DNA from: an uncultured Acidobacteriota bacterium
GTDB taxonomy: Bacteria > Acidobacteriota > UBA6911
NCBI GenBank assembly: GCA_963827655.1
Contig: CAWHCF010000022.1
Span: 160,001-224,000 of the forward strand
Length of the DNA stretch: 64,000 bases
Direction of reading: 5' to 3'
This document shows, in pieces, positions 17,187-36,930 of the stretch (positions within the stretch are counted from its first letter, which is position 1; every line of letters begins with the position of its first letter). The notes under the pieces were generated by a model. It did not search any database, was not told the origin of the DNA, and saw nothing but the letters and a program-made list of their open reading frames with translations. A program made the translations under genes and the position numbers.

Positions 17187-17226
17187 AAATTGTCAATCGA
17201 CAATCGTCAATCGTCAATCGTCAATT
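17187..17226. repeat. GTCAATC heptamer tandem array next to the ADOP stop codon
   Basis: aaattgtcaatcgacaatcgtcaatcgtcaatcgtcaatt. Confidence 0.8.
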
Positions 17227-19766
17227 CATTCATATCTCAGCGCCACCGTTGGGTCGGTGCGTGAGGCTCGCCTCGCCGGCACGTAGCCGGCGAGAGTCGC
17301 GACTGCCAGCATCAACAGCGTCGCCATCACAATGGTGGCCGGGTCGGTGGGTTTCAACCCAAACAGGTACTTCTCGACCAGACGCGTGGCTGCCAGTGCA
17401 CCGGGGACACCCAGGACGATCCCAATCCCGACCAGCAGCATTGTTTCCCGGAGAACCATCCGGAGCATGGCCGAGCGCTGCGCGCCCAGAGCCATGCGGA
17501 TGCCGATTTCCCGAGTCCGCCGGACCACGGCGTAAGACATGAGACCGTAGAGGCCGACGCAGGCCAGGAGCAGGGCCAGCGCGCCAAAGAAACTCAACAG
17601 CTTGGCGATCAACTGCTCGTCGGCCAGAGTTCGGTTGACCTGGTCTTCCAGCGTCCTGACATTCCGAATCACGAGGTTGCTGTTGATCTCCTTCAGCGCC
17701 TGGCGGATTTGTCCGGTCATGGCGGAGGGGTTTCCCACCGTGCGCACCTCGATAGCGGAAACACGACCCTGGCCTTGCACCCAGGGAAGATAGGTCATGC
17801 GGGGGGTCTGCTGGCGCAGGTTGTCGTATTTCGCATCCTGAACCACGCCGACAATTTCAACCGCCTGGTCCCGATCCAGTTGCGCCGCAAAAGGGATATA
17901 GCGCCCGAGCGAGTCTGATTTGGGAAAATAAACGAGCTTCCCCAGGGGGCTCTGCTGACCAAAGTAGTGTCGCGCCATCGTTTCGTTGATGACGCCGACC
18001 TTGGGTGACGTTGCCGTGTCCTCGTAGCCGAAGTCGCGCCCGAGCAGCAATCTCATCCCGAGCGTTTCAAAGTAGCGGTTGGATACCCAGTTTTGCCGGA
18101 CATCGCCATCGGTTTCGGGATTCACATTGGAGCCCGGCACGCGCACGGGCGCGGTGGTTGCCGATCCACTCAACAGGCCATATTTGGAAAGGCTGGCCGA
18201 TCGCACGCCCGGCAGGGCGTTGAGCCGCTGGTGCACCTGAGGGCCCAGCGCGGCGATTTCAGGCGGCTTGAGCGCGGCCGGATCGGCCATGACCGTGATT
18301 GAGAGGACGTTGTTGCGCTCGAAGCCGGCGTCGAACGCCCGCAGATTCTGCAGGCTGCGGATCAGCAGCGCGGCGCCCACCAGGAGCACAAGAGAAAGCG
18401 CTACTTGCGAGATAACCAGCGTCCGGCTAAAGCGCTGTCTGGGCGGGCTGCCGCTCTGGCTGCCGGCGCTTTCTTTCAGCGCAGGATTCAGATCCACGAC
18501 CGCTGTCAGGAGCGCCGGTACCAAGCCAAAGAAAATCCCGGTCAAAAGCGAGACGGCCAGCGTGAAGCCGAGCACACGCCATTCCGGGCGAAGATCGAGT
18601 TGTATTGGAGAGCCCCCGCCCGAGGCAAGCCCGAGCAGAAGCTCGCTGCCCCACGCCGCAAGGAGCAGACCCGTGGCACCGCCCATGATGGCAAGCAGCA
18701 TGCTTTCCGTGAGTAGTTGCCGGATCAGCCGGCCACGGCCCGAGCCGAGGGCCAATCGAATGCCGATTTCCTTTTGCCGTGACGCCGATCGCGCCAGCAG
18801 CAGATTAGCCACATTGCAACAGGCGATGAGCAAGACCAATCCGACCACGGCCATGAGCAGCCGCAGCGGCTGCGAAAAACGCATTCGCAGCGCGGCAAAG
18901 CCTTTGCTGCCGGGCTCGAGTTCCACCCGGACCTCTTCGAGCTTGGGCGCGCTGTGGATCAAGCTACCTTTTCCGCTCAGGATCTCGTCGGCCAGCAGTT
19001 GACGATACAGGAACGTCAAGGCCGTTGTGGCCTGCCGCTCATCGGTACCGGGTTTCAAGCGTCCCATCGTTCTGAACCAGGTCGCAGTGCGCACTTCCAG
19101 GAGACTCCTCGGCTCCAGGCTGGGTTGCATCCGAATAGGAAGCCAGATGTCGGGAAGTACCCCCACCGATTCGCCAAAAAACTCCCGGGGTGTGACGCCT
19201 ACGATCGTGAAAGCTGCGCCATTGAGCATGATGGTCCGCCCCAGGATCGAGACGTCGCGGGCGAACTGGCGTTCCCAGAAGCCATGGCTGATGACGGCGA
19301 CAGGGCCTTGCGGTCCCCCCACGCCAGGCACCTGGTCATCTTCCGCGGTAAACACCCTCCCACGCATGGCGTTCACGCCGAGAACGGAGAAGTAGTTCCC
19401 GGAGACGAGCCTTCCGCGCAATCCCCCTGCGAGCTGCAGCTCGCCGTAGCCCTCCATGCTGACCCGCAGCACGTCAACCGAACCGCTCGCAAAGATCCCC
19501 GACAGCGCGTCCTGACGCTGGGAAATCTCGCGAAAGATCGGGAAGTTGAAGTCGCGGCCTCGATTGCCGTGAACCGGTCTGACGACGACGAGCTGCTCCG
19601 GATTCTCGACTGGAAGCGATTTCAGGAGCACAGCGTCTATCAAGCTAAAGATGGCGGTATTCGCCCCAATGCCGAGAGCCAGAGACAGTACCGCCACCGC
19701 CGTGAAGCTGGGACTCTTACCCAGCATCCGCACGCCGAACCTCAGATCCTGCCAGAAAGTCTCCAT
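17226..19766 (-). CDS. ADOP-type ABC transporter permease (duplicated MacB_PCD/FtsX)
   Basis: METFWQDLRFGVRML.KSPSFTAVAVLSLALGIGANTAIFS, CCNVANLLLAR, RTREIGIRMALGA, DPTVALRYE. Confidence 0.95.
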   Translation of the reverse strand: METFWQDLRFGVRMLGKSPSFTAVAVLSLALGIGANTAIFSLIDAVLLKSLPVENPEQLVVVRPVHGNRGRDFNFPIFREISQRQDALSGIFASGSVDVLRVSMEGYGELQLAGGLRGRLVSGNYFSVLGVNAMRGRVFTAEDDQVPGVGGPQGPVAVISHGFWERQFARDVSILGRTIMLNGAAFTIVGVTPREFFGESVGVLPDIWLPIRMQPSLEPRSLLEVRTATWFRTMGRLKPGTDERQATTALTFLYRQLLADEILSGKGSLIHSAPKLEEVRVELEPGSKGFAALRMRFSQPLRLLMAVVGLVLLIACCNVANLLLARSASRQKEIGIRLALGSGRGRLIRQLLTESMLLAIMGGATGLLLAAWGSELLLGLASGGGSPIQLDLRPEWRVLGFTLAVSLLTGIFFGLVPALLTAVVDLNPALKESAGSQSGSPPRQRFSRTLVISQVALSLVLLVGAALLIRSLQNLRAFDAGFERNNVLSITVMADPAALKPPEIAALGPQVHQRLNALPGVRSASLSKYGLLSGSATTAPVRVPGSNVNPETDGDVRQNWVSNRYFETLGMRLLLGRDFGYEDTATSPKVGVINETMARHYFGQQSPLGKLVYFPKSDSLGRYIPFAAQLDRDQAVEIVGVVQDAKYDNLRQQTPRMTYLPWVQGQGRVSAIEVRTVGNPSAMTGQIRQALKEINSNLVIRNVRTLEDQVNRTLADEQLIAKLLSFFGALALLLACVGLYGLMSYAVVRRTREIGIRMALGAQRSAMLRMVLRETMLLVGIGIVLGVPGALAATRLVEKYLFGLKPTDPATIVMATLLMLAVATLAGYVPARRASRTDPTVALRYE

Positions 19767-19793
19767 CACTCCTCCGTTGTGAAAACCAGTAGC

Positions 19794-19809
19794 GCACGAG
19801 CCGTGCCAA
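19794..19809 (-). promoter_or_regulatory. Sigma-54 (-24/-12) promoter
   Basis: Minus strand TTGGCACGGCTCGTGC (GG-N10-GC), about 28 nt upstream of the permease ATG. Confidence 0.7.
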
Positions 19810-20045
19810 CGACTCCGTCGCTCGAAGCTATTGAGTGAGTTAGCGCATACCGAAAGGCAGGCAGTTGCCCGACGGATAGAGGTGTCCGCTATTGGGATGG
19901 GAATCCTTCGAAAGCGAACAGTCCACTTGCGCTTCATCGCGGCTTCGTGATTAGTAGCCGCCTGGACGTCGCACATCGCCAATCTGGCACTGAAGCCGAA
20001 CCGTCGTGTCCGTTGGAACGACACCAAAGGTTAAGTGGAAAAGTG

Positions 20046-22964
20046 TTAAGGCTTCCACTCCGCCATCCAGATGTTGCCCGTACGCTCGCCCATAGGGAAC
20101 ACGATCTTGTCTTGGGCAACCGAGATTTCAAGGAGGCTGGGAGGCACGCTCGAGATGGAGCGCCGGGCCCCGTGCAGATGATAGACAGGCTCGGCTTCGC
20201 CGAGTGGGCGCTTGGTTTTCGGATCCAGCCGTTGGCCCCAGAGACAAATGTAACCGTCCCGAGCCGAGCGGAAATAGAGCGAGTTGCTGTCCGGCGACCA
20301 GCGCGGAGTACTGTCCAGCGTTGCGCCGTTCGTCACCGCGATCCAAGTGCTCTGCCCGATTGCCGACATTCCTTGAAATGGCGCGATGAACAGTCGAACC
20401 TGGTCTCCAACGATGGCATCGAAGGCGATCCAGCGCCCATCGGGGGCGAAATGGGACCGCAAAAGGGGGTACTCCGGATGCTTGAGCACGATGGCCTTCT
20501 CTCGCGAAGCGACGTCCAGCAGACCGATCTGTTTTCGATCCATTGGCCAGTAGAGGAGGTACCTATTATCGGGGGACCAGTCCCAGGCCAGAAAGCAGTC
20601 GTCGCACACGTTTGCAGGGAGGGCATCTCCCGAGCGGACACCGCTGAGGGATGAAATGTTTACCTTGGGCTTCCCACCCGCCCAGTCGTTGTAAGCGATC
20701 TTGGATCCATCCGTGCTGATGGCCGGGCGACTCTCAAATGCCGGCGAGATGGTGATGGCTCTCTCCTCTCCCGTCCGGAGTTCCTTCGCCCAAACATCAA
20801 AATTGCCCGCTCGATCGGACGCAAACACCAGTCGCTGACCGTCGCCTGAAATAGCGGGCTGAACGTCGACGGAGGTGGCTTCGGTCAAGCGGCGGAGCGG
20901 GCCATTGGCTGCTGCTTCGCGATGATTGATCGGCAGACTCCAGATGTTGACGTTCGTGGTCAAGTTAGAAAAAGCGATTCGGCGTCCGGCTGACGTCGCA
21001 GGAGAATCTTCCGTGCCCGCTCCAAAGGTGAGCCGCTGGGGAGCATCCGTAACGCGCCAGTCTGTGGACGAAACGGCAACCTGCCAAATATTCCTGCTGT
21101 CCCCAACATCAGCCGCAAAAAGAACGCGGCCCTCGGCGGTCCAGACAGCGGGAATCAGCATCACGGCTGGCAGGTTGCCGCGTGTCGTCGGAAGTCCGTG
21201 CTTGCGCAAGGCTGCCAAAGCTCCTGTTCTGACCACGGGCCCGTTGTCGAGCGGTGTGACCCACCAGTCCCAACTCTCCGACGGTGGCGGGTTTCCGAGC
21301 TGATCCCCTAAAAACAGAATGTGCTTTCCATCCGGGGCCCAGACAGGAAAACGGCTGACGGCGAACTCTGGCTGAAGCTGCCTGGGAGGTCCCCCGGTGA
21401 TGGGAACAACAAAGGTCCGGCCGGCGTCAAGGCCCACCCAGTAGGCGATCCAGCTCCCATCGGGCGAGAACCGGGGTCTGCGTCCTTGCGCGGCGAACTT
21501 TGTCGCTTGTCCTCCCAGAGCAGAAACAACATAGACAGCGCCACCGTCCCGCTCGGAGCGGAAGGCGATCTTGGTCCCGTCAGGCGAAAAGGCCGGCTCG
21601 TGGTCATCGGCTGGATCCGTCGTCAGGCGGATCGCATCTCCTTTACCCACTTGCTGGACCCAGATGTCGAGATTGCCCTCCCCGCTGCGGTCCGATGCGT
21701 AGGCCAGCAGCTTGCCATCCGGCGACAGGGCGGGATCAGTGGTCAATCCCGAATCCGAGGTCAGCCGCGTGAGAATCGGGGCGGGGTTCGAGGGCCCCTG
21801 GCGGGTGAGCCACCACGTGAGACCCGCAGTGGCCCCCACCAAAGCCAAGCCGGCGATCGCCGCGGCGAAATAGCGACGCCGCGTGTTGATGGACGGCGGC
21901 ACGGGAATTGGAGACGATGGGTGCCGGGCCAGGCGCAGTTGAAAGCCCAGATCACGCGCGGACTGGAACCGTTCTTCGGGCTCCTTCTCCAGGCAATGCC
22001 GTACGATTTGCTCGAGCTGTGGCGATACCTGCGCAATCGGTGGCGGGTCTTGCTTAAGAATCGCATTCATCGTCTCGACGCTCGTATCGCCCAAAAACGC
22101 CCGCCGGCCCGCTAGCATCTCGTACAGAACCGCCCCCAGCGCGAAAATGTCCGACCTATGATCAGCCGTTTGCCCCTGCACCTGCTCAGGCGACATGTAG
22201 GCAGGCGTTCCAAGAACCATTCCGGGAGCGGTCTCGGTCGGGACCTGATTCTGCTGCTCCGGCCCTGGTTGCACCAGCCTGGCCAGCCCGAAGTCGAGAA
22301 TCTTCACGCGGCCGTCCCTGGTGATGAAGATGTTCTCCGGCTTGAGATCCCGGTGCACGATACCTTTATCATGGGCGGCAGCCAGGCCCTGGGCGATCTG
22401 GCCGGCATATTCGATCGCTTTACCTTCAGGGATGGCGCCGCCGGCGAGCCGCTGGCGCAATGTGGCTCCTTCGAGCAGCTCGGTGACCAGGTAGGGCGAA
22501 TCCTCTTCTCTGCCGATCGCGTAGATCGCCAGGACATTGGGATGGTTCAGCATGCCGGCCGCTCGCGCTTCCTGCTCGAACCGCCGCAGGCGCTCCGGAT
22601 TGCGGGAGTATTGTGACGGCAGAATTTTGATTGCCACTTGCCGGTTCAGAGCCGGGTCCAGGGCCCGCCAGACTTCACCCATGCCGCCAGCGCCGAGCGG
22701 AGCAATCAACTCGTACGAGCCCAGGCGCTGTCCACGGGCCAGCCGCGGCGCTTCGTCGGCGAGGGCGCGCGCCGCCACCTCCACAGCGGGTGATTCCAGA
22801 AAGGGGTCGTCTGGTTTGTGTGCTTCGAGCAGTGAGACAACTTCCCGGCGCAATTCGGCATCACCTGCGCAACTCTGGTCGAGAAACGCGGATCTCGCGG
22901 ATGGGTCATGATCCAGGGCGGCCTGATAGATCCGCTCGACCTTTTGCCAGCGCTCCGGCGTCAT
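20046..22964 (-). CDS. Hanks-type Ser/Thr kinase with TM helix and PD40/TolB-like beta-propeller
   Basis: GAGGMGEV, VAIK, HRDLKPEN, DFG, GTPAYMSPEQ; repeated P.FSPDG..IA. Confidence 0.95.
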   Translation of the reverse strand: MTPERWQKVERIYQAALDHDPSARSAFLDQSCAGDAELRREVVSLLEAHKPDDPFLESPAVEVAARALADEAPRLARGQRLGSYELIAPLGAGGMGEVWRALDPALNRQVAIKILPSQYSRNPERLRRFEQEARAAGMLNHPNVLAIYAIGREEDSPYLVTELLEGATLRQRLAGGAIPEGKAIEYAGQIAQGLAAAHDKGIVHRDLKPENIFITRDGRVKILDFGLARLVQPGPEQQNQVPTETAPGMVLGTPAYMSPEQVQGQTADHRSDIFALGAVLYEMLAGRRAFLGDTSVETMNAILKQDPPPIAQVSPQLEQIVRHCLEKEPEERFQSARDLGFQLRLARHPSSPIPVPPSINTRRRYFAAAIAGLALVGATAGLTWWLTRQGPSNPAPILTRLTSDSGLTTDPALSPDGKLLAYASDRSGEGNLDIWVQQVGKGDAIRLTTDPADDHEPAFSPDGTKIAFRSERDGGAVYVVSALGGQATKFAAQGRRPRFSPDGSWIAYWVGLDAGRTFVVPITGGPPRQLQPEFAVSRFPVWAPDGKHILFLGDQLGNPPPSESWDWWVTPLDNGPVVRTGALAALRKHGLPTTRGNLPAVMLIPAVWTAEGRVLFAADVGDSRNIWQVAVSSTDWRVTDAPQRLTFGAGTEDSPATSAGRRIAFSNLTTNVNIWSLPINHREAAANGPLRRLTEATSVDVQPAISGDGQRLVFASDRAGNFDVWAKELRTGEERAITISPAFESRPAISTDGSKIAYNDWAGGKPKVNISSLSGVRSGDALPANVCDDCFLAWDWSPDNRYLLYWPMDRKQIGLLDVASREKAIVLKHPEYPLLRSHFAPDGRWIAFDAIVGDQVRLFIAPFQGMSAIGQSTWIAVTNGATLDSTPRWSPDSNSLYFRSARDGYICLWGQRLDPKTKRPLGEAEPVYHLHGARRSISSVPPSLLEISVAQDKIVFPMGERTGNIWMAEWKP

Positions 22965-23527
22965 CGCTTCAACTCACGCTTCAGCCAAGCCTTGGCTGCT
23001 CTCCAGTCTCTTCCCACAGTGTCCGTCGAAATTTGCAACGCTTCAGCTGTCTCCTCCAGGCTCAATCCTCCGAAGAAGCGCAATTCCACCACGCGCGCTT
23101 TGCGCGGATCAAGTTTGGCCAGTTCCTGAAGCGCCTCGTCCAGCGCGACCAGATCAGAATCGACGTTTGTTACTACACCCAGCCCTTCCCCAAGCGTCAC
23201 CTGGCGCCAATCGCCACCGCGCTTCTGATACCGTCGGTTGCGAGCAAAGTCTACCAGGATTCGACGCATCAATTGGGCCGCCACGGCGAAGAAGTGGGCG
23301 CGATTCTGCCACCGTACGCGGCTGGAGTCCACGAGCTTGATATAGGCCTCGTTCAGCAGGGCCGTGGTCTGAAGGGTGTGTCCAGCGTGCTCGCGACGCA
23401 TGTAGCCCTCCGCAAGGCGGTGGAGCTCGTCATAGACAAGCGGCATCAGGCGGGACAACGCATCCTGGTCGCCATTGCCCCAAGCCATCAACAGCTCCGT
23501 GACGTCCTGATGGGACTGGCCGCTCAT
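22961..23527 (-). CDS. Kinase-associated ECF sigma factor (TIGR02999/ECF43-like)
   Basis: LVYDELHRLA, HTLQTTALLNEAY, NRAHFFAVAA, ELRFFGGLS, TVGRDWRAAKAWL; ATGA overlap with the kinase. Confidence 0.9.
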   Translation of the reverse strand: MSGQSHQDVTELLMAWGNGDQDALSRLMPLVYDELHRLAEGYMRREHAGHTLQTTALLNEAYIKLVDSSRVRWQNRAHFFAVAAQLMRRILVDFARNRRYQKRGGDWRQVTLGEGLGVVTNVDSDLVALDEALQELAKLDPRKARVVELRFFGGLSLEETAEALQISTDTVGRDWRAAKAWLKRELKR

Positions 23528-23635
23528 CGCGTGCACCGGATGCCGACACTATAGCATCCCTGTAGCTTATTTATGCGGAGTTTCCCGGCCAGATCGCGCC
23601 TATACCTGGGTGAAACCAAAAAAGGAGGTTTTAAG

Positions 23636-25816: not shown

Positions 25817-28616
25817 TCACGAAGCGGTCGAATCAATTCCCGACGCGGCTGCTTTCGATGACTCTTCCTTGAGTTTCACAACCGTGTAGCCGACCTTGGC
25901 AAGTATTTGCGGAATGCCTCGTACCAGCTTTCGATCTTTCTCCTTCTCCTCCTCGGCTAATGTCCCTTCCCCAATTGCCGCGGTTTCGGCCGGCGTGTAG
26001 AGTCTGGCCATTTCCTCAAACGACAGCAAGCGCCACGGGAGAAGATCCTTGTGCAGCTTCTGTTCCTTGTTCGTTTCGGCGGCCCAGCGCCAACCCGCCT
26101 CAATCTTCGCCTTCATCCATCGCCCGTGTTCCATTTCCGCCAGGGACTCAAGCGCAGAGCCGGCGAAGTCCGGGAAGGTTTCGTTGCTGCGGGCGGGAAC
26201 CATGATGCAGCCGACTCGGGCCAGCTTGCTCGGTATGTCTCGCACGAGGCCGCGATTCTGTTCCCTTTCGTCTTCAGGCAACTCGGCAAACGCTTTCAGC
26301 GAACTGTGAGTCCTGAGTTCATCATTGGTCTGGGGTCCCCAGCGGTATCCCTTGGCTCGTAATTCTTCACAAAACAGTTCGTGCGCAGCTTCGGCCAGTT
26401 TTTCAAGCAGTTCCCCTTCCAGATCCATCCGGTGTATCAGGGCCAGGAAATCCTGTCCATCCACGTGCAGGTCGAGCTGCGCCTCCGAGGGGAGGCTGGA
26501 GCGCTCGAACCGGGTCTTGCCCCCGAGCAGGCTCATCGCGATGATCGCCTCCATCGATCGGACTCCGTGTTTGTAATCCTGCGTTTCCAGGAAAGCGCGC
26601 AGCACACCTTGATCAATGTTCATTAGCTGCTTGCCTTCTTTCTTGTGGAGCAGCTGAGGCGCGTTACGCTGAAGCGCCGAGCGCAGCAGGATACCCCGGC
26701 GGATGATGTAGTAGGGATCAGGGGGAGCCGGAGTATCATCAGCAGGTTTCTGACGATTCGGGCCCAGGATATTGACGTACCCTTTGAGCCGGCTGATGAA
26801 ATCCGGTCCCTTGGCTGCGCGGAACTTCTCCGGGCCCAGCCTTTGACCAAAGGTTTCCATGCTTGAGCTGGTGCCGCCTGCGAAGACGAAGATTGAGCGC
26901 CCGATGGGATGAGTGATCTGTCCTTCCTGAAAGCTGCCGTCCTGCATCGGAGCCAGGAAGTAGCGCAGCCAGCCGAGCGCATTTCCTGCCAGCGCCGTGT
27001 CGAACTCATCCCAGAATACGAGCGGAATCAAACCCGACAATCCTACGTCGCGCACCTGGTGCAGCGCCTGAAGCAGTTCCCCGGGGTCATTGCGCTGCGA
27101 GAGATTGAACTCCAGCACCTTGATTTGATCGGGCAGAAGTGAATTAGCCACTTCGATGATGCCGAAAGATTTGCCGGACCCCGGAGCTCCGAAGACTGCG
27201 ATGGACAACGGCCGCTTCTGACGGCTCTGGCGGCAGTATTCACTCACCAGCGTACGAATGCTGCGAAAGCTTTCGATCTCGCGCCGATCCACGGTCAGTA
27301 GATTGCCGAACTGTCCGAGCGGCACGCCCTGCAATGCGCTCTCGGCTCCTTCGATCACAGTCTGCCGGGCGATCTGGTCCAGAGCGCCGGCGCGGCGATC
27401 TTCCAGAATGGTCCACAAAGCCGGATGCGGCGCTATTCCCGTTCCCGCCGCGGGCTGGGTCAGGAAGCGCGCTTCACGCACCTCGGTTTCCGCGAAGAGT
27501 TGTTTCTCGCCGGCCAGCTCCGTCAGCGATCGATCCGATGGGAAAGGCCAGTTGAGCCCTGGACGCGACTTCCCCCCTGACGCCAAATCCTTCCACATGA
27601 AGCTTGCGCATCGCAGCCAGGCCACTCTGGATGCCCTTGCCGATGTCGGGCTGCTCGCTCGAAAGCATCAGCTGCCTGGCAATGCCGGCCGTGAGACAGG
27701 AAGTGTAGCCGATCATTCCGCCGGGATGACTTTGTCCCCACATACCCTCGATGACCGCGGGATCGAAGAACAGCCGGCATTTCGGTCCGCCGCCCGCTTC
27801 TCCCCCGCCCTGTGACCGCGACAGGAGAAACGCGCCGTCCGTATGGAACGAAATCACAACATGAGCGCAATGAGAGAGCGCATTGACGCGCGGGTTATAG
27901 ACCAGTTCCCAAGCCAGGTCTTGCGCGGTGCGCTCCCAGGAGAGTTCGCGGCTGATCTGCACTTCCGTCAGGCGCAGATCATTGACCGTCATGACCACGA
28001 TCAGCCGTTCGGCGCAACTCTGATGCAGGTGCTCCCACAACTTGCCCTGAGCCACGGGTCGAGCCATCTTCAAGAGAATCCAGGGACGCCGCCCTTCCGT
28101 CGTGATGGCGCGAGGCCAGAGTTCCGGATGCTCGCGAAAGCCCAGGTCCGCATCGTCGAGCACTACGATCCTGGCTTCCGGGGTATCGTCCACCACGAGC
28201 TTCCAATCGGCGCCTGGCACTCCATCGACCGCGCTGCGATCCAGTCCCAGAAACTCCTCCACGCGCCAGGCCGGTTTCTCTCTATCGAGAGGCGATTTGA
28301 CGCCGTACTTGAAGAGGGACCACAGGGCGTAGGAGTGATGGTAGCGTCCATCGCCCGGATGGACCGGCTCCGCGGGCGCGCCCGTCTGACGGACTTCGCA
28401 TTGTGCCTGCCCGGCCCCGCGCAACTCCCTGGCGACGGCGTCGATCAGATCGGCCAGCAACGCCGCTCCTCCCCGCTGCCAGTAAGCGCGAGTACAGTCG
28501 TCCGCATTCCACCCTGCCCCGCCGCCTTCCGAACGCCGGGTGCGGGCGAGATTCCAGTCAATCGATACATCCCCGGTAACGACAACCGCGTGCTGCAAGC
28601 CGTGAGTGTCGGCCAT
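25817..28616 (-). CDS. PfkB/HldE-like N-domain + Clp-type AAA+ ATPase + tandem RyR repeats; one frameshift near 27524
   Basis: ORFs 27474-28616 and 25817-27625 join at ATC GCT g ACG GAG CTG. Motifs VVVTGDVSID, FGAPGSGKSF, LVFWDEFD, PDFISRL, HGVRSME, LAEAAHELF..GYRWGP, LAEMEHGRW..GWRW..KLHKDLLPW. Confidence 0.75.
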
Positions 28617-28763: not shown

Positions 28764-31184
28764 CTATTCGTAGCGCAAGGCGGTCATCGCATCGACGCGG
28801 GCGGCCCTGCGGGCCGGCAGGTAGCACGCAGTCAGAGCGACCAGCAGGAGAACCAAGCCCACCCAGACCATGGTGACTGGATCGGTGGGGCTGGTTTCGA
28901 AAAGCAGACCCTGGACGAGGCGCGTCAGGGCCAGCGCCCCGATGACCCCGACGACCAGGCCGGCGGCGACGGGAACGGTCCCACCGCCCACCACCAGCTT
29001 GATCAGGTCCCAGGAAGAAGCTCCCAACGCGGCGCGAACACCCAGTTCTTGCGTGCGTTGTGCAGTGACGTACGAAAGCACGCCGTAGATTCCCACGGCG
29101 GCCAGCAGGAGCGCCAGTGCCGCGAACACCCCCAGCAGCAGCGTGCGTAACCGCGTCCCGGCTACGGATTCGGCCTTGATCTGTTCCAGCGCCCTGGCGT
29201 CGGGCAGAGCCTGGTTCTTGTTGATACGCCAGATCGACTGTTGAATCGACTTGATGAGCATCGAAGGATCGCCCGCGCCCTTGGCTAGAAGGCTGACGCC
29301 GACTATCGGGCTCTGCGCGTAACTGACGTACACGCCGGCGTCCGTGCTGTCCAGGCCGCTTACCTTCTCGTCTCCGACAATCCCGACCACCTCCCATGGC
29401 ACCTCGGGGCCGAGCTCGCGCTTGCCGGTGATGATCTGCTCGATGACAACCTGCTTGCCGATCGGGTCTTCATCGGGAAAATGCCGCCGGACGAAAGTTT
29501 CGTTGATAACGATCACGGGCAACGATCCTTTGACGTCGCGGTCGGCGAGTCCGCGCCCTCTCCGGATCGGCATCCCCAGCGCGAAGAAATAGCCGGGCGT
29601 GACGATCTTGAAGAAGCAGGCTGGACGCTTGGACTGCTCGTAGGCCCTTCCCGCAATGCGAAAAGGCATGCCAAAGCTCCAGCCTTGCAAGGGGAGGGCG
29701 GAGGTAAAAGCCGCTTCCTTTACGCCTGGAACGGCCCGAACCGTTTCCAAAGCCTGATTCAAGTAGGTCGTCAACCGCGCGCCGTCCGTATCTTTGTCCA
29801 TCATGAGCTGGAAATACATGGTGACGACATTGGTCGAATCGAAGCCCGCGTCAACGTTGGTCAATCGCTGAAAGCTGCGGATCAGCAGTCCCGCACCCGA
29901 CAGCAAAATGAAGGCCAGGGCGACCTCCGACATGATGAGCGCATTGCGCGACCAGCGCTTCCCGCGGCCTACGAATCCACGGCCGCCTTCCTTCAGGGCC
30001 TCGGCCGCATCGCGACGCGACATCTGCAGAGCCGGAGCCAATCCAAACAGCAACCCTGTGACCAGCGCCAGCGCCGCCAGGAAAAGCATGACGCGAAGAT
30101 CTATTCCGACCTTTGCGTAGGTAGGTAGAAAGAAGGGCGGCAAAAGTCTGTGGATACCGTGAAAGAGCCCGTAGCCCAGCGCCAGGCCCACGGCGGCGCC
30201 GAACGCCGACATCAGCAGGCTTTCGGTCAAGAGCAGTCGGACGAGCCGCCGGCGTCCGGCGCCGAGCGCTGCGCGGATGGCCATTTCGCGCGACCGCATC
30301 GTCCCGCGCGCCAGCAGGAGGTTGGCCAGGTTGGCGCAGCCAATCAACAGCACCGCTCCTACCGCCGCCATCAGCACGATGAGCGAAAGCCGCAACTGTG
30401 GTCCGACCATGCGGTCGATCCATCGGTCGATCGTAACTCCCCAATCCTTCTTCATGGCGGGGTACTGTTCGGCGATGCGCGCGGCAATCGCGCTCATCTC
30501 TGCCCGCGCCTGTTCCAGGCTCGTTTCCGGCTTCAGGCGCGCGACGGCGGTCAGGTAGTGGAAATTTCTGGTTGCGGTTTCCGGTTTGAAGGCAAGCGGA
30601 AGCCAGATGTCGGACCATCCACGGTCGAACTCGTTGTCGCCCGGCAGCACACCGATGATGGTGTAACTCTCGCCGTCCAGAGTCAGATCGCGTCCCAGGA
30701 TGCCGGTGTCGCTGCCAAAGCTCGATTGCCAGATCCGGTGGCTCAGCACTGCCACGCGATCTTTGCCCGGCAGATCCTCGCCATTTGCGAAGGCCCGGCC
30801 CAGCGAAGGTCGAACGCCAAAGATGTCGAAGTACGGAGCGCTGACCAGCCCGACCCGGAGCTGGCGCGGCTCCCCGCTGCCCGACAACGTAACAGTCTTC
30901 CCGCTCGAGGCCGCGATCATCTGGAAGACGGTGTTCTGCTTCTGCCAGTCGAGAAAGTTCGCGGCGGAGATCACGTTCCGCGTCCCACCGGGAGGTTTCT
31001 CCCAGAGCTGAACGATCCGCTCGGGCTCGGGATAGGACACCGGCCTCAGCAGCACGCCGTCAAGGAAGCTGAAAATCGCCGTGTTGGCGCCCAGGCCGAG
31101 AGCGATGGTCAACACCGCGACCAGAGTGAAGCCGAGATTTTTGCGGTAACTGCGCAAGGCGAAACGAACGTCGTCCCACAGCAT
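28764..31184 (-). CDS. ADOP-type ABC transporter permease
   Basis: MLWDDVRFALR, ALGLGANTAIFS, CANLANLLLAR, RTQELGVRAALGA, DAMTALRYE. Confidence 0.95.
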   Translation of the reverse strand: MLWDDVRFALRSYRKNLGFTLVAVLTIALGLGANTAIFSFLDGVLLRPVSYPEPERIVQLWEKPPGGTRNVISAANFLDWQKQNTVFQMIAASSGKTVTLSGSGEPRQLRVGLVSAPYFDIFGVRPSLGRAFANGEDLPGKDRVAVLSHRIWQSSFGSDTGILGRDLTLDGESYTIIGVLPGDNEFDRGWSDIWLPLAFKPETATRNFHYLTAVARLKPETSLEQARAEMSAIAARIAEQYPAMKKDWGVTIDRWIDRMVGPQLRLSLIVLMAAVGAVLLIGCANLANLLLARGTMRSREMAIRAALGAGRRRLVRLLLTESLLMSAFGAAVGLALGYGLFHGIHRLLPPFFLPTYAKVGIDLRVMLFLAALALVTGLLFGLAPALQMSRRDAAEALKEGGRGFVGRGKRWSRNALIMSEVALAFILLSGAGLLIRSFQRLTNVDAGFDSTNVVTMYFQLMMDKDTDGARLTTYLNQALETVRAVPGVKEAAFTSALPLQGWSFGMPFRIAGRAYEQSKRPACFFKIVTPGYFFALGMPIRRGRGLADRDVKGSLPVIVINETFVRRHFPDEDPIGKQVVIEQIITGKRELGPEVPWEVVGIVGDEKVSGLDSTDAGVYVSYAQSPIVGVSLLAKGAGDPSMLIKSIQQSIWRINKNQALPDARALEQIKAESVAGTRLRTLLLGVFAALALLLAAVGIYGVLSYVTAQRTQELGVRAALGASSWDLIKLVVGGGTVPVAAGLVVGVIGALALTRLVQGLLFETSPTDPVTMVWVGLVLLLVALTACYLPARRAARVDAMTALRYE

Positions 31185-31499: not shown

Positions 31500-33457
31500 A
31501 TCGACATAGGTAGGCGGTCACTCGCTGTGCCTGTTACACCACGTGCATACGGGTCCGTACACGGCGGTTCGGCTGGTAGGCCCGGTGAAGAGCTGCTAAC
31601 CTCGGAAGCCCCAGAGAGTCAAAGTGGGCGTTCGGTAGTGCCCGCATCAGAGTGGAAGAGTTGCTCAGCTGCCAAGGCCCGTGGCTGCAATTAGCGAGCT
31701 TGTATGCGGAGACCGCATCTAGTCCCAGCTTCCGCAGTCCCTTGTATCGGCCTTTGCAGGTCTTCCACTGCTTCCACTGCACACACCTCAGCCTACGGCG
31801 AATCCACGAGTCCAGTTCTCGGAAAACCGTGGGTGTTTCGCAAAATCGAAAGTACGCCATCCACCCTCGCATGTAGCTTGCTAGGTCGGATATGCGCCTC
31901 GTCCTGCTGATCCCCCGGCTCCGCTGCGTCAGTTCCCGTATCCGATCCTCGAAGCGTTTGCGCGCCTTCGGCGCTATTCGCCGCCTCGGCGCCTTCTCGC
32001 CTGTGAAACTGAATCCCAGAAACTTTCGCTTCCACGGCGCCGCCACTGCGCTCTTCTCCCCGTTTACCTTCAGCTTCAGCTTCTTCGTGATGAATGCGCT
32101 TAGGCTCTCCATCACTCGCTGCCCTGCTCGTTCGGTCCGCACATAGATGTTGCAGTCGTCCGCGTACCTCACAAAGCGGTGCCCGCGTCGCTCCAGCTCC
32201 CGGTCCAGGTCGTCCAGCATCAAATTTGATAACAGTGGCGAAAGTGGGCCCCCTTGCGGCGTCCCCTCCTCCGTCGGAATCACCACGCCGTCCTCCATTA
32301 CTACTCCCGCCTTCAGAAATCCGCGCAGCAGTTTCAGCACTCGCTTGTCCTTCTCCCGTTTCGCTACTCGCCCCATCAACATGTCCTGGTTGACTCGGTC
32401 GAAAAACTTTTCCAAATCAAGATCCACGACTATCCGATAGCCCGCCGCTATGTGTTCCTGCGCTCGTGCCACCGCCTGATGTTGCGATCGACCCGGTCGA
32501 AATCCATGGCTGTGCTCGGAGAATGTCGGGTCCCACCGCTGTTGCAGTACCTGCAGTACTGCCTGCTGATAAATCGATCCAGCACGCAGGGAATCGATAG
32601 ATTCCTCACCCCTCCGTCCGGTTTCGGTATCTCCACCCGTTTCGCCGGCTTCGGTCTGTAGGTCCCTCCCAGCAGTTCTTCCCGATGTTTCGGCCAGTTC
32701 TTCCTCAGGTACTTGGGTAGTTCCTTGACGGTCATCCCGTCTATCCCAGGTGCCCTTTGTTCCGCTGTACTCGTTTCAACGCCTTCCTCAGGTTCTCTGG
32801 TTCACATATCTCCTCCATCAACCGCTCGACTGTTCCTTCGCTTTCCGGTTCCTGGTCCGCCACGCGCAGTTCGGCCCTTCCGTCGTCCTCGGAGCTTCAC
32901 TCCTCGGTTCTTCCGTAAAGGCCAGCTCTAGCTGGTTCTTCTGCCGCTTCCTACTCGTGAGTCCCATCCCGTACTTGCGTCCCCATTTACCCTCCTGTCC
33001 AGAAGGGCACCGTTCAGGCCTTCACCAAAACGTTCCCGGACCGGCGACCCCTTCTCGTTTCTCCCCTTTCGGGTGAGTATCCCGGTCGAGTGGTCCGACT
33101 GCTCCTGGCTACTATGCCCTCTGCTGACTCCTGCATTGAGCTCAGGGGCTCTCTCGATTCCCTCAGTCCTCTTCCGGACACAATGCAGATCTCCCGAGGT
33201 AAGTATGACCGCCTTCCGCACACAACCGCCGGATCTACGCTGAGTGAACTTGATGGATATGGACTTCGCGGTCAAGGGGCCGCTCGTCCGTCGCCTCGCG
33301 CCTCTTATCCGGTTTTTGTTCATCGGCTCGTGCGTTTGCTCGACGCTTCCTTCAGACCCCACCTCACGGTGGGCGCCCTTGCGCTTTGCTACCCTTCACC
33401 TCCATCAGGTTGGGGAAAGACTTTCACTTCCAAGCTGTCATACAATGCTCGGCGCAC
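31500..33457 (-). mobile_element. Group II intron, class IIC
   Basis: 5' end GTGCGCCGAGCAT at 33457; domain V GAACCGCCGTGTACGGACCCGTATGCACG with CGC triad; 3' end CCTATGTCGAT at 31500; hairpin 8 nt upstream in the 5' exon. Confidence 0.9.
31534..32967 (-). CDS. ltrA: Group II intron reverse transcriptase/maturase, several frameshifts, no endonuclease domain
   Basis: MGLTSRKRQKNQLELAF start; RVEIPKPDGGVRNLSIP, DLDLEKFFDRV, GTPQGGPLSPLLSN, RYADD, FLGFSF, domain X GWMAYF..LDSWIRRRLR. Confidence 0.9.
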
Positions 33458-33461
33458 CCCC

Positions 33462-33488
33462 TGTGGCGACGGGCCATTGGCCCGTCGC
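33462..33488. repeat. REP-like hairpin (intron target)
   Basis: TGTG-GCGACGGGCCA-T-TGGCCCGTCGC; related hairpin GGACGGGCT-tgat-AGCCCGTCC at 33546-33567. Confidence 0.75.
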
Positions 33489-33723
33489 AATTAACGTGAT
33501 CGCTATGCCTTAAGCTTAGAAGTTCAGTAGTGCCCCTCGGGAACCGGACGGGCTTGATAGCCCGTCCGCACATGAACCGGGCGAGTTTTGCGACGGTCTC
33601 TGATGACCCGCGCCACAGACCAATTTTTTCATAGTTTCTGACGGGCCTTCGGCCCTAGGCGACAACACAGCTGACTCCTACCGCTCCTGCCCAATAAGTC
33701 AGCGTATTTATGAGCCAACCAAC

Positions 33724-35362: not shown

Positions 35363-35391
35363 TGATAGCATTATGATAGCACGCATGTCAA
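35363..35391 (-). promoter_or_regulatory. TA promoter/operator
   Basis: -35 TTGACA (35391-35386) followed by two TGCTATCA boxes (35374-35381 and 35363-35370). Confidence 0.65.
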
Positions 35392-36872
35392 TTACCCAGC
35401 CAGGCCAGGATCCTGGGCCACTGCTGGTACAGGGCAATGCCGGAGATGCCGCCGTAAAAAATCGAGCACAACACCAGGCCGGCAAGCATCACGCGGGGGG
35501 GCCGCAATTCGCGCGGGAGAAGCGTCAGACTCACATACAGGACGTGCAACGCCGAAAATGACAGGGCAAAATTCACCAGGACCGCGGAGGCGATCGCGAG
35601 CACGAGCGGGTTGGGAGTCAACTTCAGCAAGACCATACCCCAGAGGCCGTAGACGGCCAGCAGCAAGTAGTAAACGTATTTCACCTTGTTTCCCGGGAGA
35701 TGCCGCAGCCCCTGAATCCCGGTCCAGAACACATCGGTCCAGCGCCGGCTGATGCTGTCTAACACGGAAATCTGGCTAGGGAAGAAAATAACAAAGCCGC
35801 AGAGCAGCGTCAGGAACCAGAAAGCGCTTCCATGGCGGACAGACACAGCCTCGGCAGTCATGGCCGCGACGGCATTCCCTTCCACGTCCTGAACCCCGCG
35901 GATGAACTCGTAGGAGAGCATTGCTGGAAGCGCCATGCCAACGACACAAGCCGGAGCCCAGAGAAGAAGCTGATCGCGAAGGATATGCCGCAACCAGCCT
36001 CTCCATTTGATCATATTTTCGCGGGTGATCTCGAAAACCTTGCCTGAGTGCGAAAGCCTGACCGACTTCCCGCCAAGCGCGCTCGGAATCGCGCCCACCA
36101 GGGATCCCATGCCCCAGCCCTTGTCGCGCGCGTAGTTCGAAAATGACGTGTTATGCAAGCCCCCGGCGCCCGCGGTGGCGGCAAAGGCTGCCAGCGTGGC
36201 CCAGCTGAAATCGCCGGGCGGCAGCGCCCCGAATCGATACAGGCCCGAAAGAATCTCCCACTTGGTATCCCAGCTCACCAGGAACACGGAAACAAAGCCG
36301 AGGTAGGTCAAGACCAGCACCAGCTTGGCGCCCATTACCCGTTCAAGGGAGTTGTAGATCTTGCCCCCGAAGATAAGCGGCACGAACGCCGCCAGGAAGA
36401 TCGCATAGCTCAGGTCACGAACCAGAGCGCCATCCTGAGCCGTGGGGAGCCGCCGCAGAATGACGGCCGCCAGGGGGACTGCCGCATTTGCGGCCAGGAA
36501 AGGGAAATAGGTTCCCAGATCGAGGATGAGATAGAAAATGGCCCAGGCTCGCGGCCTGGATGATGTGCGAAAAAATCCCACAAAAATCGACTCGCCGCTG
36601 TACAGCGCATAGCGCATGACCGAGAGGTTGTAGGTCACCTGCAGCAGGATCGCGACCGTTGCCAGCCAGAGAACCTGGCCGCCATACTGGGCCGTAACCA
36701 GCGGACCCAGCAACCACTCCCCGCCGCCGATGTTTGATCCCGCCATGAGCAATCCCGGCCCCAGGAGCAGCCTCCAGTCGGCCGCATGAAAAACAGGGGC
36801 AGCAGGTAGTTCTGACTGCTCCCAGCGCGGAAGGCCGGGAGCGCGCGGGGGCGCATCCACAATGCTGATCAT
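35388..36872 (-). CDS. Nramp-like (APC superfamily) membrane transporter
   Basis: LGPGLLMAGSNIGGGEWLLGP, RYALYSGE, YARDKGWGMG; about 11 TM segments. Confidence 0.75.
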   Translation of the reverse strand: MISIVDAPPRAPGLPRWEQSELPAAPVFHAADWRLLLGPGLLMAGSNIGGGEWLLGPLVTAQYGGQVLWLATVAILLQVTYNLSVMRYALYSGESIFVGFFRTSSRPRAWAIFYLILDLGTYFPFLAANAAVPLAAVILRRLPTAQDGALVRDLSYAIFLAAFVPLIFGGKIYNSLERVMGAKLVLVLTYLGFVSVFLVSWDTKWEILSGLYRFGALPPGDFSWATLAAFAATAGAGGLHNTSFSNYARDKGWGMGSLVGAIPSALGGKSVRLSHSGKVFEITRENMIKWRGWLRHILRDQLLLWAPACVVGMALPAMLSYEFIRGVQDVEGNAVAAMTAEAVSVRHGSAFWFLTLLCGFVIFFPSQISVLDSISRRWTDVFWTGIQGLRHLPGNKVKYVYYLLLAVYGLWGMVLLKLTPNPLVLAIASAVLVNFALSFSALHVLYVSLTLLPRELRPPRVMLAGLVLCSIFYGGISGIALYQQWPRILAWLGN

Positions 36873-36930
36873 GATCAAACACCAAGACGCGAAGAAACGC
36901 CGAGAATTTTTCCGGAGAAGGACGCCAAGA

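Follow-up and report, generated by a model that had tools for sequence, protein, structure and literature searches.

A gene on the minus strand of the 64,000-nucleotide (nt) stretch of DNA analysed here (the window), from an uncultured Acidobacteriota bacterium, encodes a protein that joins a ribokinase/PfkB-fold domain, an AAA+ ATPase module, and two ryanodine receptor (RyR) repeats. Its relatives form a large family of cellular proteins, many of them encoded beside TIR genes, STAND genes, and the gene of a putative SLOG-like partner. The protein is proposed to be the ligand-gated AAA+ component of a Thoeris-like signalling system, driven by TIR proteins through a nucleotide derived from nicotinamide adenine dinucleotide (NAD), a reading to which a probability of about 0.5 is given. 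The features on which the analysis draws are as follows.

25817..28616, minus strand: whole gene, PfkB-fold domain, AAA+ module, and two RyR repeats (open reading frames; end-to-end match to homolog P0001)
27522..28616, minus strand: N-terminal ribokinase/PfkB-fold domain, 365 amino acids (aa) (AF2, Foldseek, VIA)
27518..27526, minus strand: frame break, one surplus base compared to related contigs (sequence, alignments, contig comparison)
26441..27448, minus strand: helical linker and AAA+ ATPase module with lid (AF2, Foldseek, VIA)
27167..27190, minus strand: Walker A, GAPGSGKS (G, K, and S invariant in 83 of 83 homologs)
26999..27022, minus strand: Walker B, LVFWDEFD (D and E invariant in 83 of 83 homologs)
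26207..26413, minus strand: RyR repeat 1 (Pfam stretch 405–473; placed alike by the genome PF02026 search)
25871..26161, minus strand: RyR repeat 2 (PF02026 match 25997–26161; pocket conservation)

Architecture of the protein

The gene is read as two overlapping minus-strand open reading frames (ORFs) in different frames, the N ORF (27474–28616, 380 aa) and the C ORF (25817–27625, 602 aa). All eight motifs singled out in an earlier, sequence-only reading of the window (VVVTGDVSID, IVVLDDADLG, GAPGSGKS, LVFWDEFD, FLAPMQDG, IFVFAGG, PDFISRL, and HGVRSME) are present in their translations. The closest homolog, P0001 (930 aa; among the best matches from a collection of 5.8 billion proteins), is matched end to end, with 92% identity between the N ORF and residues 1–365 and 94% identity between the C ORF from residue 28 onward and residues 358–930. 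A single frame change is therefore placed at ~27521, directly after ...FPIGSIAD, with a read-through product of ~932 aa; the sequence-only reading had also described one ~930-aa protein with a single frameshift, though near 27524.

The N-terminal domain forms a complete ribokinase fold in an AlphaFold model built from 61 sequences (predicted local distance difference test score (pLDDT), 90.5; predicted template-modelling score, 0.91). Foldseek ranked HldA first (E = 1.8e-10), followed by ribokinases and ketohexokinase, in keeping with the HldE/ribokinase-like fold proposed from the sequence. VIA-align, for which rows no more than one Z unit apart count as tied, superimposed 277 residues on pseudouridine kinase (Z = 18.8; root-mean-square deviation, 4.0) in a tie with ribokinase, adenosine kinase, and tagatose-6-phosphate kinase (270–278 residues), and PfkB was found in 26 of the 30 Atlas clusters nearest to the domain. 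Though the fold of the whole domain is shared with the ribokinase/PfkB kinases (HldA, ribokinase, pseudouridine kinase, and adenosine kinase), identity to them is 10–15%. The domain matched no Pfam family at E ≤ 0.1 and no NCBIfam or PADLOC family, and a PF00294 scan of the whole genome returned 12 other places and not this gene. Local hhalign comparisons with PfkB kinases of the same genome were collinear across the whole domain but not significant; QRGGA, from the GG motif of the domain (QRGGAALLA), paired with the PfkB GG motif at low confidence, and IEGMWxQxHPGGMIGYT took the position of DxxGAGD, the PfkB kinase motif that holds the catalytic Asp. In both of these non-significant alignments the position of the catalytic Asp fell on G299 or P298, within a stretch (QSHPGGMIGY) that has no acidic residue. 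Overall, the domain has a PfkB fold without a family profile match and, tentatively, without the catalytic signature, so that kinase activity is not implied, and its role towards a ribose-containing ligand may be binding rather than phosphorylation.

The AF2 model of the AAA+ module (pLDDT, 94.0) consists of the core and a helical lid. Top Foldseek matches were Skd3 and the second nucleotide-binding domain (NBD2) of ClpB (E = 3.3e-7), and VIA-align returned ClpA D2 (Z = 16.3), FleQ (16.2), NtrC1 (15.9), and RuvB (15.1). As the first two are tied, a Clp-type module, as in the earlier description, is inseparable here from a sigma-54-activator-type module; the AAA+ module of that description stands. 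The core and lid are common to the Clp/Hsp100 D2 modules (ClpA, ClpB, and Skd3) and the sigma-54 activators (FleQ, NtrC1, and LuxO; Z = 15–16.3), but identity to both is 13–16%, and here a single AAA+ module is set between two ligand-type domains. Read from the sequence, an aromatic-hydrophobic-Gly pore loop is not evident in this protein. Beside Walker A and B, the Arg-finger (PDFxSR) and sensor-2 (HGxRS) motifs are intact, and these are placed like the Arg-finger and GAR sensor-2 motifs of ClpB D2, the likeness that the sequence-only reading had picked out. Across 84 sequences, K213, D216, F217, R220, and S298 were invariant and H294, G295, and R297 were at least 90% conserved, and this set of motifs fits an active, ring-forming ATPase. 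Pfam scores of the window protein were below cut-off for AAA_22 (18.6 against 27) and AAA_16 (17.5 against 32.6), and partial PF00004 matches of two homologs lay above it (P0098, 26.6; P0013, 21.3; cut-off, 21.2). For nSTAND5 (PF25199), neither the window protein (17.8 bits) nor the best homolog (27.8 bits) reached the cut-off of 34.

RyR repeats and their ligand pocket

The C ORF matched PF02026 in two stretches (E = 7.4e-21; 74.6 bits, gathering threshold 27.4), as expected from the tandem RyR repeats of the sequence-only reading. A PF02026 scan of the genome found two places, both in this gene, and RyR was found nowhere else in the genome. In alignments of the tandem to RyR1 2753–2940 and to crystal constructs of RyR Repeat12, profile E values went as low as 2.9e-23; the likeness to the eukaryotic Repeat12 and Repeat34 lies in the tandem pair, whereas there is no channel here, no other RyR domain, and the context is prokaryotic.

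Two phage proteins provided the ligand pocket for comparison. RyDEP is reported to bind and cleave 2'/3' cyclic ADP-ribose (2'/3'cADPR), with H75, W78, H100, and D117 as ligand residues, and other phage homologs to act as nanomolar sponges (PMC13232231), while RyR Tad is reported as a gcADPR sponge with residues H129, W132, H154, and K170/D171 (10.64898/2026.06.04.730250). Both belong to PF02026 and share with repeat 2 the pocket H-x2-W...H(+25)...(K)D(+42). All four residues, H, W (+3), H (+25), and D (+42), are kept in repeat 2, where the pocket consists of H500, W503, H525, K563, and D564 (C-ORF numbering, here and for repeat 1); a 22-aa insert precedes the KD pair, and in insert-free homologs such as P0054 the D is found at +17 from the second H. 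Conservation of these positions was high (H, 60/60; W, 59/60; H, 55/60; K, 59/60; D, 60/60 homologs). The pocket is partly retained in repeat 1 as H415, F418, H440, and N457 (H, 60/60; F or Y, 60/60; H, 54/60; N, 59/60). The pocket was mapped by spacing and by the range of the match to PDB entry 35tm_A ("Ryr domain-containing protein", 139 aa) rather than from a printed alignment of residues; this match is weak, spans the pocket stretch exactly with a one-residue offset, and the entry is presumed, though unconfirmed, to be RyDEP. RyDEP and RyR Tad are small (139–183 aa), single-repeat homodimers of phages, whereas the repeats here form a covalent tandem that closes a cellular AAA+ protein of ~900 aa with relatives that adjoin TIR genes instead of opposing them.

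Among phage records, 69 weak matches were obtained. Those from mycobacteriophages were rejected as chance (E ≥ 0.2, on the strand opposite the annotated gene), and the one clear match was to an RyR-domain protein of Sinorhizobium phage Phosso (E = 6e-4), confined to repeat 2. DyoEdafos was absent among the 60 phage matches listed (of 69).

Genes linked to the family

Genomic context was examined in 80 loci, 68 of which held a full-length gene, with ORFs called by a script of our own and then clustered. Of the 65 loci that extended far enough to contain it, 23 had the gene of a ~190-aa partner directly downstream on the same strand, and for 22 of these 23 the gap was −35 to +21 nt; counted anywhere in the locus, the partner was present in 33 of 68. 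TIR genes occurred in 27/68 loci, DUF4062-NACHT-TPR genes in 18/68, and a second RyR protein in 13/68; 55 of 68 loci possessed at least one of the four. Proximity to the family gene (≤0.5 kb) was observed for 28 of 33 partners and 19 of 36 TIR genes, and one adjacent TIR protein was ThsB-like (E = 6.9e-51). The operon of L031 combines the family gene with a ThsB-like TIR gene and a SLOG-like-SLATT gene. From the density of TIR genes in the TIR-rich genome of the window (31 matches in 8.18 Mb), a TIR gene would be expected in ~6% of 17-kb loci compared to the 40% observed, a crude control that draws on one genome. Other genes in the loci included NUDIX, RelA/SpoT-TPR, Fic, and PD-T4-6-like kinase genes, with nuclease genes in some. 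The sequence-only reading had found no partner gene and described a stand-alone protein, which holds for the window and its genome but not for the family, in which a partner is coupled or fused and TIR and STAND genes are neighbours.

Two of these associations merit description in their own right. At locus L012 (10702–11226) a NUDIX hydrolase gene starts 5 nt past the stop of the family gene, replacing the usual partner, and has a DUF4062-type STAND-TPR gene behind it; hydrolysis of ADP-ribose is common among NUDIX enzymes. The second RyR proteins are mostly membrane TrkA_N-RyR proteins of ~600 aa (L011 11252–13066, L027 1539–3332, L070 11322–13121, and nine further loci), which start with hydrophobic helices, continue with a TrkA_N (RCK-type) domain, and end in an RyR domain, and their genes often follow the partner gene. 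No match to these proteins was found in PADLOC-DB 2.0. They look like membrane, channel-like proteins and could be effectors gated by the same ligand.

A putative SLOG-like partner

The partner (~190 aa) lacks a Pfam or PADLOC match and carries the invariant motifs GxTGHR, LAEGADR, and WDG...GGT; at least 5273 family matches were found, all annotated as "hypothetical". Long forms of 505–627 aa add the two-transmembrane domains SLATT_1 and SLATT_3, with SLATT_1 above cut-off in two of the eight long forms scanned (30.6 and 35.2 bits; cut-off, 26.3). Further, the partner domain is fused behind the RyR repeats, at the C-terminus of the whole protein, in 7 of the 150 listed representatives (P0129, P0148, P0150, P0179, P0221, P0240, and P0251; 1050–1193 aa; E = 1.9e-28 to 7.6e-80), and such natural fusions are Rosetta-stone evidence that the protein and its partner act jointly. 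An Atlas search scored the partner at 0.89 to YpsA-SLOG. The partner profile matched only GAPDH (E = 0.033) and nucleoside 2-deoxyribosyltransferase (E = 1) among PDB sequences, and hhalign against DprA and two LOG-family (PF03641) matches of the same genome gave probabilities <1% with the LAEGADR and GGT motifs in line. As neither comparison is significant, the SLOG-like label is a lead only. On a quick tree the presence of the partner was unclustered (20–22 changes compared to ~23 in shuffles), and a co-fold prediction of the L008 protein (residues 1–712, without the RyR part) with its partner scored 0.00, which weighs neither way.

Size and distribution of the family

Of the 8000 candidates scored in a search with the C ORF, 5844 proteins reached E ≤ 0.001, with the best 120 mostly 850–960 aa in length, and a search with the N-terminal domain returned at least 1546 representative clusters (50% identity; E ≤ 0.001), most of ~900 aa. 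RyR was missing in 10 of the 28 family members scanned (727–778 aa), and the two of these for which the sequence was inspected both stop ~12 residues past the AAA+ lid. The 80 loci are distributed over at least 10 phyla (Chloroflexota, n = 32; Acidobacteriota, n = 20; Planctomycetota, n = 7; Actinomycetota, n = 6; two archaea; and others), which are intermixed in a quick tree of the family. The gene was found in none of the 40 relatives of the window organism that were searched (24 from the same family and 16 from the same class). Because of this absence, the many phyla, and their mixing in the tree, the family has the pattern of a horizontally moving accessory gene.

Proposed function and alternatives

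In Thoeris, a TIR protein (ThsB) makes the signal and a SLOG-containing protein (ThsA) is the effector, and SLOG-effector "type III" and TIR-SLATT configurations are reported (10.64898/2025.12.03.692087). The loci of the relatives resemble this arrangement in joining TIR genes, the ThsB-like one among them, to a SLOG-like protein that is sometimes SLATT-fused. As described in that source, a 2025 preprint on TIR systems, Thoeris is without an AAA+, ribokinase-fold, or RyR component, and its main text (supplements apart) does not contain 'RyR', 'AAA', 'ribokinase', or 'PfkB'; the window differs from Thoeris further, with no TIR or SLOG gene nearby. RyR, ribokinase, and PfkB were likewise absent from the main texts of Kaur 2020 eLife and the 2022 Viruses survey of NAD-ADPr, and a literature search, outside of bioRxiv supplements, found no cellular RyR protein of this architecture described. 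The window protein reached NCBIfam models far below threshold only. The family is undescribed in the searchable literature and looks like a new variant of TIR/NAD-derived signalling.

The fold, the motifs, the gene linkage, and the fusions were observed directly, and for the mechanism we infer the identity of the ligand, the direction of signalling, and any enzymatic activity. The RyR tandem, chiefly repeat 2 (H-x2-W...H...KD), would bind an ADP-ribose-type signal from the neighbouring TIR or DUF4062 STAND proteins, and this binding would control the assembly of the AAA+ ring or its ATP turnover, in the manner of the regulatory domains of sigma-54 activators. Binding or modification of the nucleotide, or delivery of the output, may then fall to the kinase-fold domain and to the SLOG-like partner, be it free, SLATT-fused, or part of the protein itself. 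The leaning of the sequence-only reading toward nucleotide sensing and defence fits the genomic context of the relatives and the two 2026 preprints on RyR ligands.

Several observations weigh against a TIR-driven, ligand-gated role. Against PADLOC-DB 2.0 the window protein gave only mad8 (E = 0.016), and neither it nor the partner matches any model of a defence system there; the literature search returned no experiment on family members and no ligand for a cellular RyR-domain protein. The sponge (RyR Tad) and the enzyme (RyDEP) share their pocket residues, so that sequence cannot separate sensing from cleavage. Linked genes are missing altogether in 13 of 68 loci and RyR in some family members, and the PfkB-AAA+ core may therefore act independently of RyR ligands. 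The SLOG assignment of the partner is statistically non-significant and draws on motifs, SLATT fusions, and the Atlas lead, the gene calls in the loci are crude, and in the window genome the gene is broken with none of the linked genes nearby.

The shared pocket also accommodates a host brake or recycler, in which RyR would cleave or sequester cADPR-type signals and the kinase-fold domain would phosphorylate the freed ADP-ribose or ribose for NAD+ salvage; this role is considered unlikely. In its favour, the H...D pair, which makes up the catalytic dyad in RyDEP, is retained in repeat 2, and the RyDEP gene is reported to lie in an NAD+-resynthesis operon (PMC13232231); the NUDIX gene of L012 and the ribokinase fold, which is that of ribose and nucleoside kinases, speak for it as well. 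Against it, six of the eight RyDEP homologs tested bound 2'/3'cADPR and none cleaved it, despite high conservation with the RyDEP of DyoEdafos (PMC13232231). The position of the PfkB catalytic Asp is non-acidic (in a low-confidence alignment), and a brake or recycler leaves the conserved AAA+ motor unexplained.

A housekeeping role outside of immunity, as a kinase-like AAA+ protein that senses metabolic or energy state through adenine nucleotides and has its neighbours by coincidence, is improbable. The mammalian Repeat12 binds ATP and has been proposed as a metabolic sensor (quoted in 10.64898/2026.06.04.730250), and both the ordinary neighbours of the window gene and the loci devoid of linked genes agree with such a role. 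Against it stand the absence of the gene from all of the relatives searched, the mixing of phyla in its tree, the adjacent TIR genes, and the operon coupling and fusion to a SLOG-like, SLATT-linked partner. Least probable is counter-defence, in which prophages or integrative elements would bring the gene along and its product would act inside the cell as a sponge for immune signals or as their degrader. The characterised RyR-domain proteins outside of animals are all phage anti-Thoeris factors, L037 has an integrase gene on the same strand ~3.2 kb upstream of the family gene, and some loci include Fic and nuclease genes. However, the Phosso protein is the only clear phage match and covers repeat 2 alone, the TIR/STAND and SLOG-SLATT genes to be opposed share operons with the gene, and a ~900-aa AAA+ architecture is unlike the small phage sponges.

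The window copy and its surroundings

The break in the window copy was compared with four soil runs aligned to the region. All four contigs that cross the site (X1, twice; X2; and X3), which come from three independent runs and are 95–99% alike, have one base fewer at 27520, 27523, or 27526; therefore the break is a one-base surplus in the window and close relatives are in frame. Of the 40 listed differences from these contigs, 22 are at third codon positions (p = 0.004; 34 further differences are unlisted), an excess that places the gene under selection in the population. Whether the surplus base exists in the organism bears on the state of this copy. The somewhat likelier answer is that the base is real and the copy is a decaying relic, as the long ORFs of the window, ~50 kb in all, look unbroken and the only other breaks seen there, two in number, are both in the reverse transcriptase of the neighbouring group II intron. 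An assembly or sequencing error in a gene that is intact in the organism is rather less likely, but by no means far-fetched. It would agree with the four in-frame contigs and with a third-position bias as expected of a selected gene, and none of the public runs contains the exact window stretch (best word share, 0.55). Error is harder to reconcile with a site that is not a long homopolymer, with breaks that cluster in dispensable genes, and with a genome from which the partner gene is absent.

The partner profile found nothing in the 90%-complete genome or in the window. When the window was searched by tblastn with partner, TIR, and STAND proteins, the only matches were to TPR repeats and to the RyR repeats of the gene itself. 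The nearest of the TIR matches is ~138 kb from the window gene, which is instead flanked by genes for a cyclase, a MacB/FtsX-type permease, and a GDSL lipase. Together, the break and the lack of a partner, of another RyR protein, and of a nearby TIR gene suggest an orphaned copy, the relic of a system whose context has been lost. The TIR matches of this genome (G000) are to PF13676, and three of them are clustered on C7 (75293–78109).

Several other features of the window were recorded. A group II intron occupies 31534–33373 on the minus strand (Rfam RF02001, 33205–33373, 129 bits; RF01998, 33107–33166), its reverse-transcriptase/maturase ORF extends over three frames (32896–32741, 32801–32448, and 32775–31534), which amounts to the two frame breaks, and a strong GC and AT skew at 32000–33500 coincides with it. 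On the minus strand at 20046–23536, the gene of an extracytoplasmic function (ECF) sigma factor (22961–23536) overlaps by 4 nt the gene of a 972-aa Ser/Thr protein kinase with PD40 beta-propeller repeats (20046–22964), likely a sigma/kinase signalling pair. Large MacB_PCD/FtsX duplicated permeases without an adjacent ABC ATPase are encoded at 17226–20027 and 28764–31184; such permeases are typical of Acidobacteriota, in agreement with the taxonomy of the closest homologs. A 496-aa ORF (35388–36878, minus strand) with no Pfam family at E ≤ 0.001 is located between two alpha/beta-hydrolase genes.

Implications for TIR signalling

Broken and orphaned, the window copy is of limited value in itself, and the finding is the family to which it points. 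In the 2026 reports, binding or cleavage of cyclic ADP-ribose immune signals by RyR domains was demonstrated only for small phage counter-defence proteins. The window gene leads to a large cellular family (at least 1546 clusters, in bacteria and archaea) in which RyR is joined with a kinase-fold domain and an AAA+ motor, and which shows genetic links with TIR, STAND, SLOG-like, and SLATT genes. A broader proposal, offered tentatively and itself rather doubtful, is that cellular RyR-repeat proteins are the host receptors of TIR-made cADPR signals, with a Repeat12-type tandem that gates an AAA+ ring; together with a ribokinase-fold domain and a SLOG-like or SLATT partner (in some loci, also membrane TrkA_N-RyR proteins), this ring would execute or tune the response. 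The family would then define a new Thoeris-like class, and the link between cADPR and RyR in animal calcium channels would have its origin in an immune sensor module of prokaryotes. Should the RyR tandem be the signal receptor, the family would extend TIR signalling by a receptor type and an ATP-dependent step that are both new, would provide a testable prokaryotic model for the poorly understood Repeat12 and Repeat34 domains of animals, and would allow two large families of "hypothetical protein" to be named.

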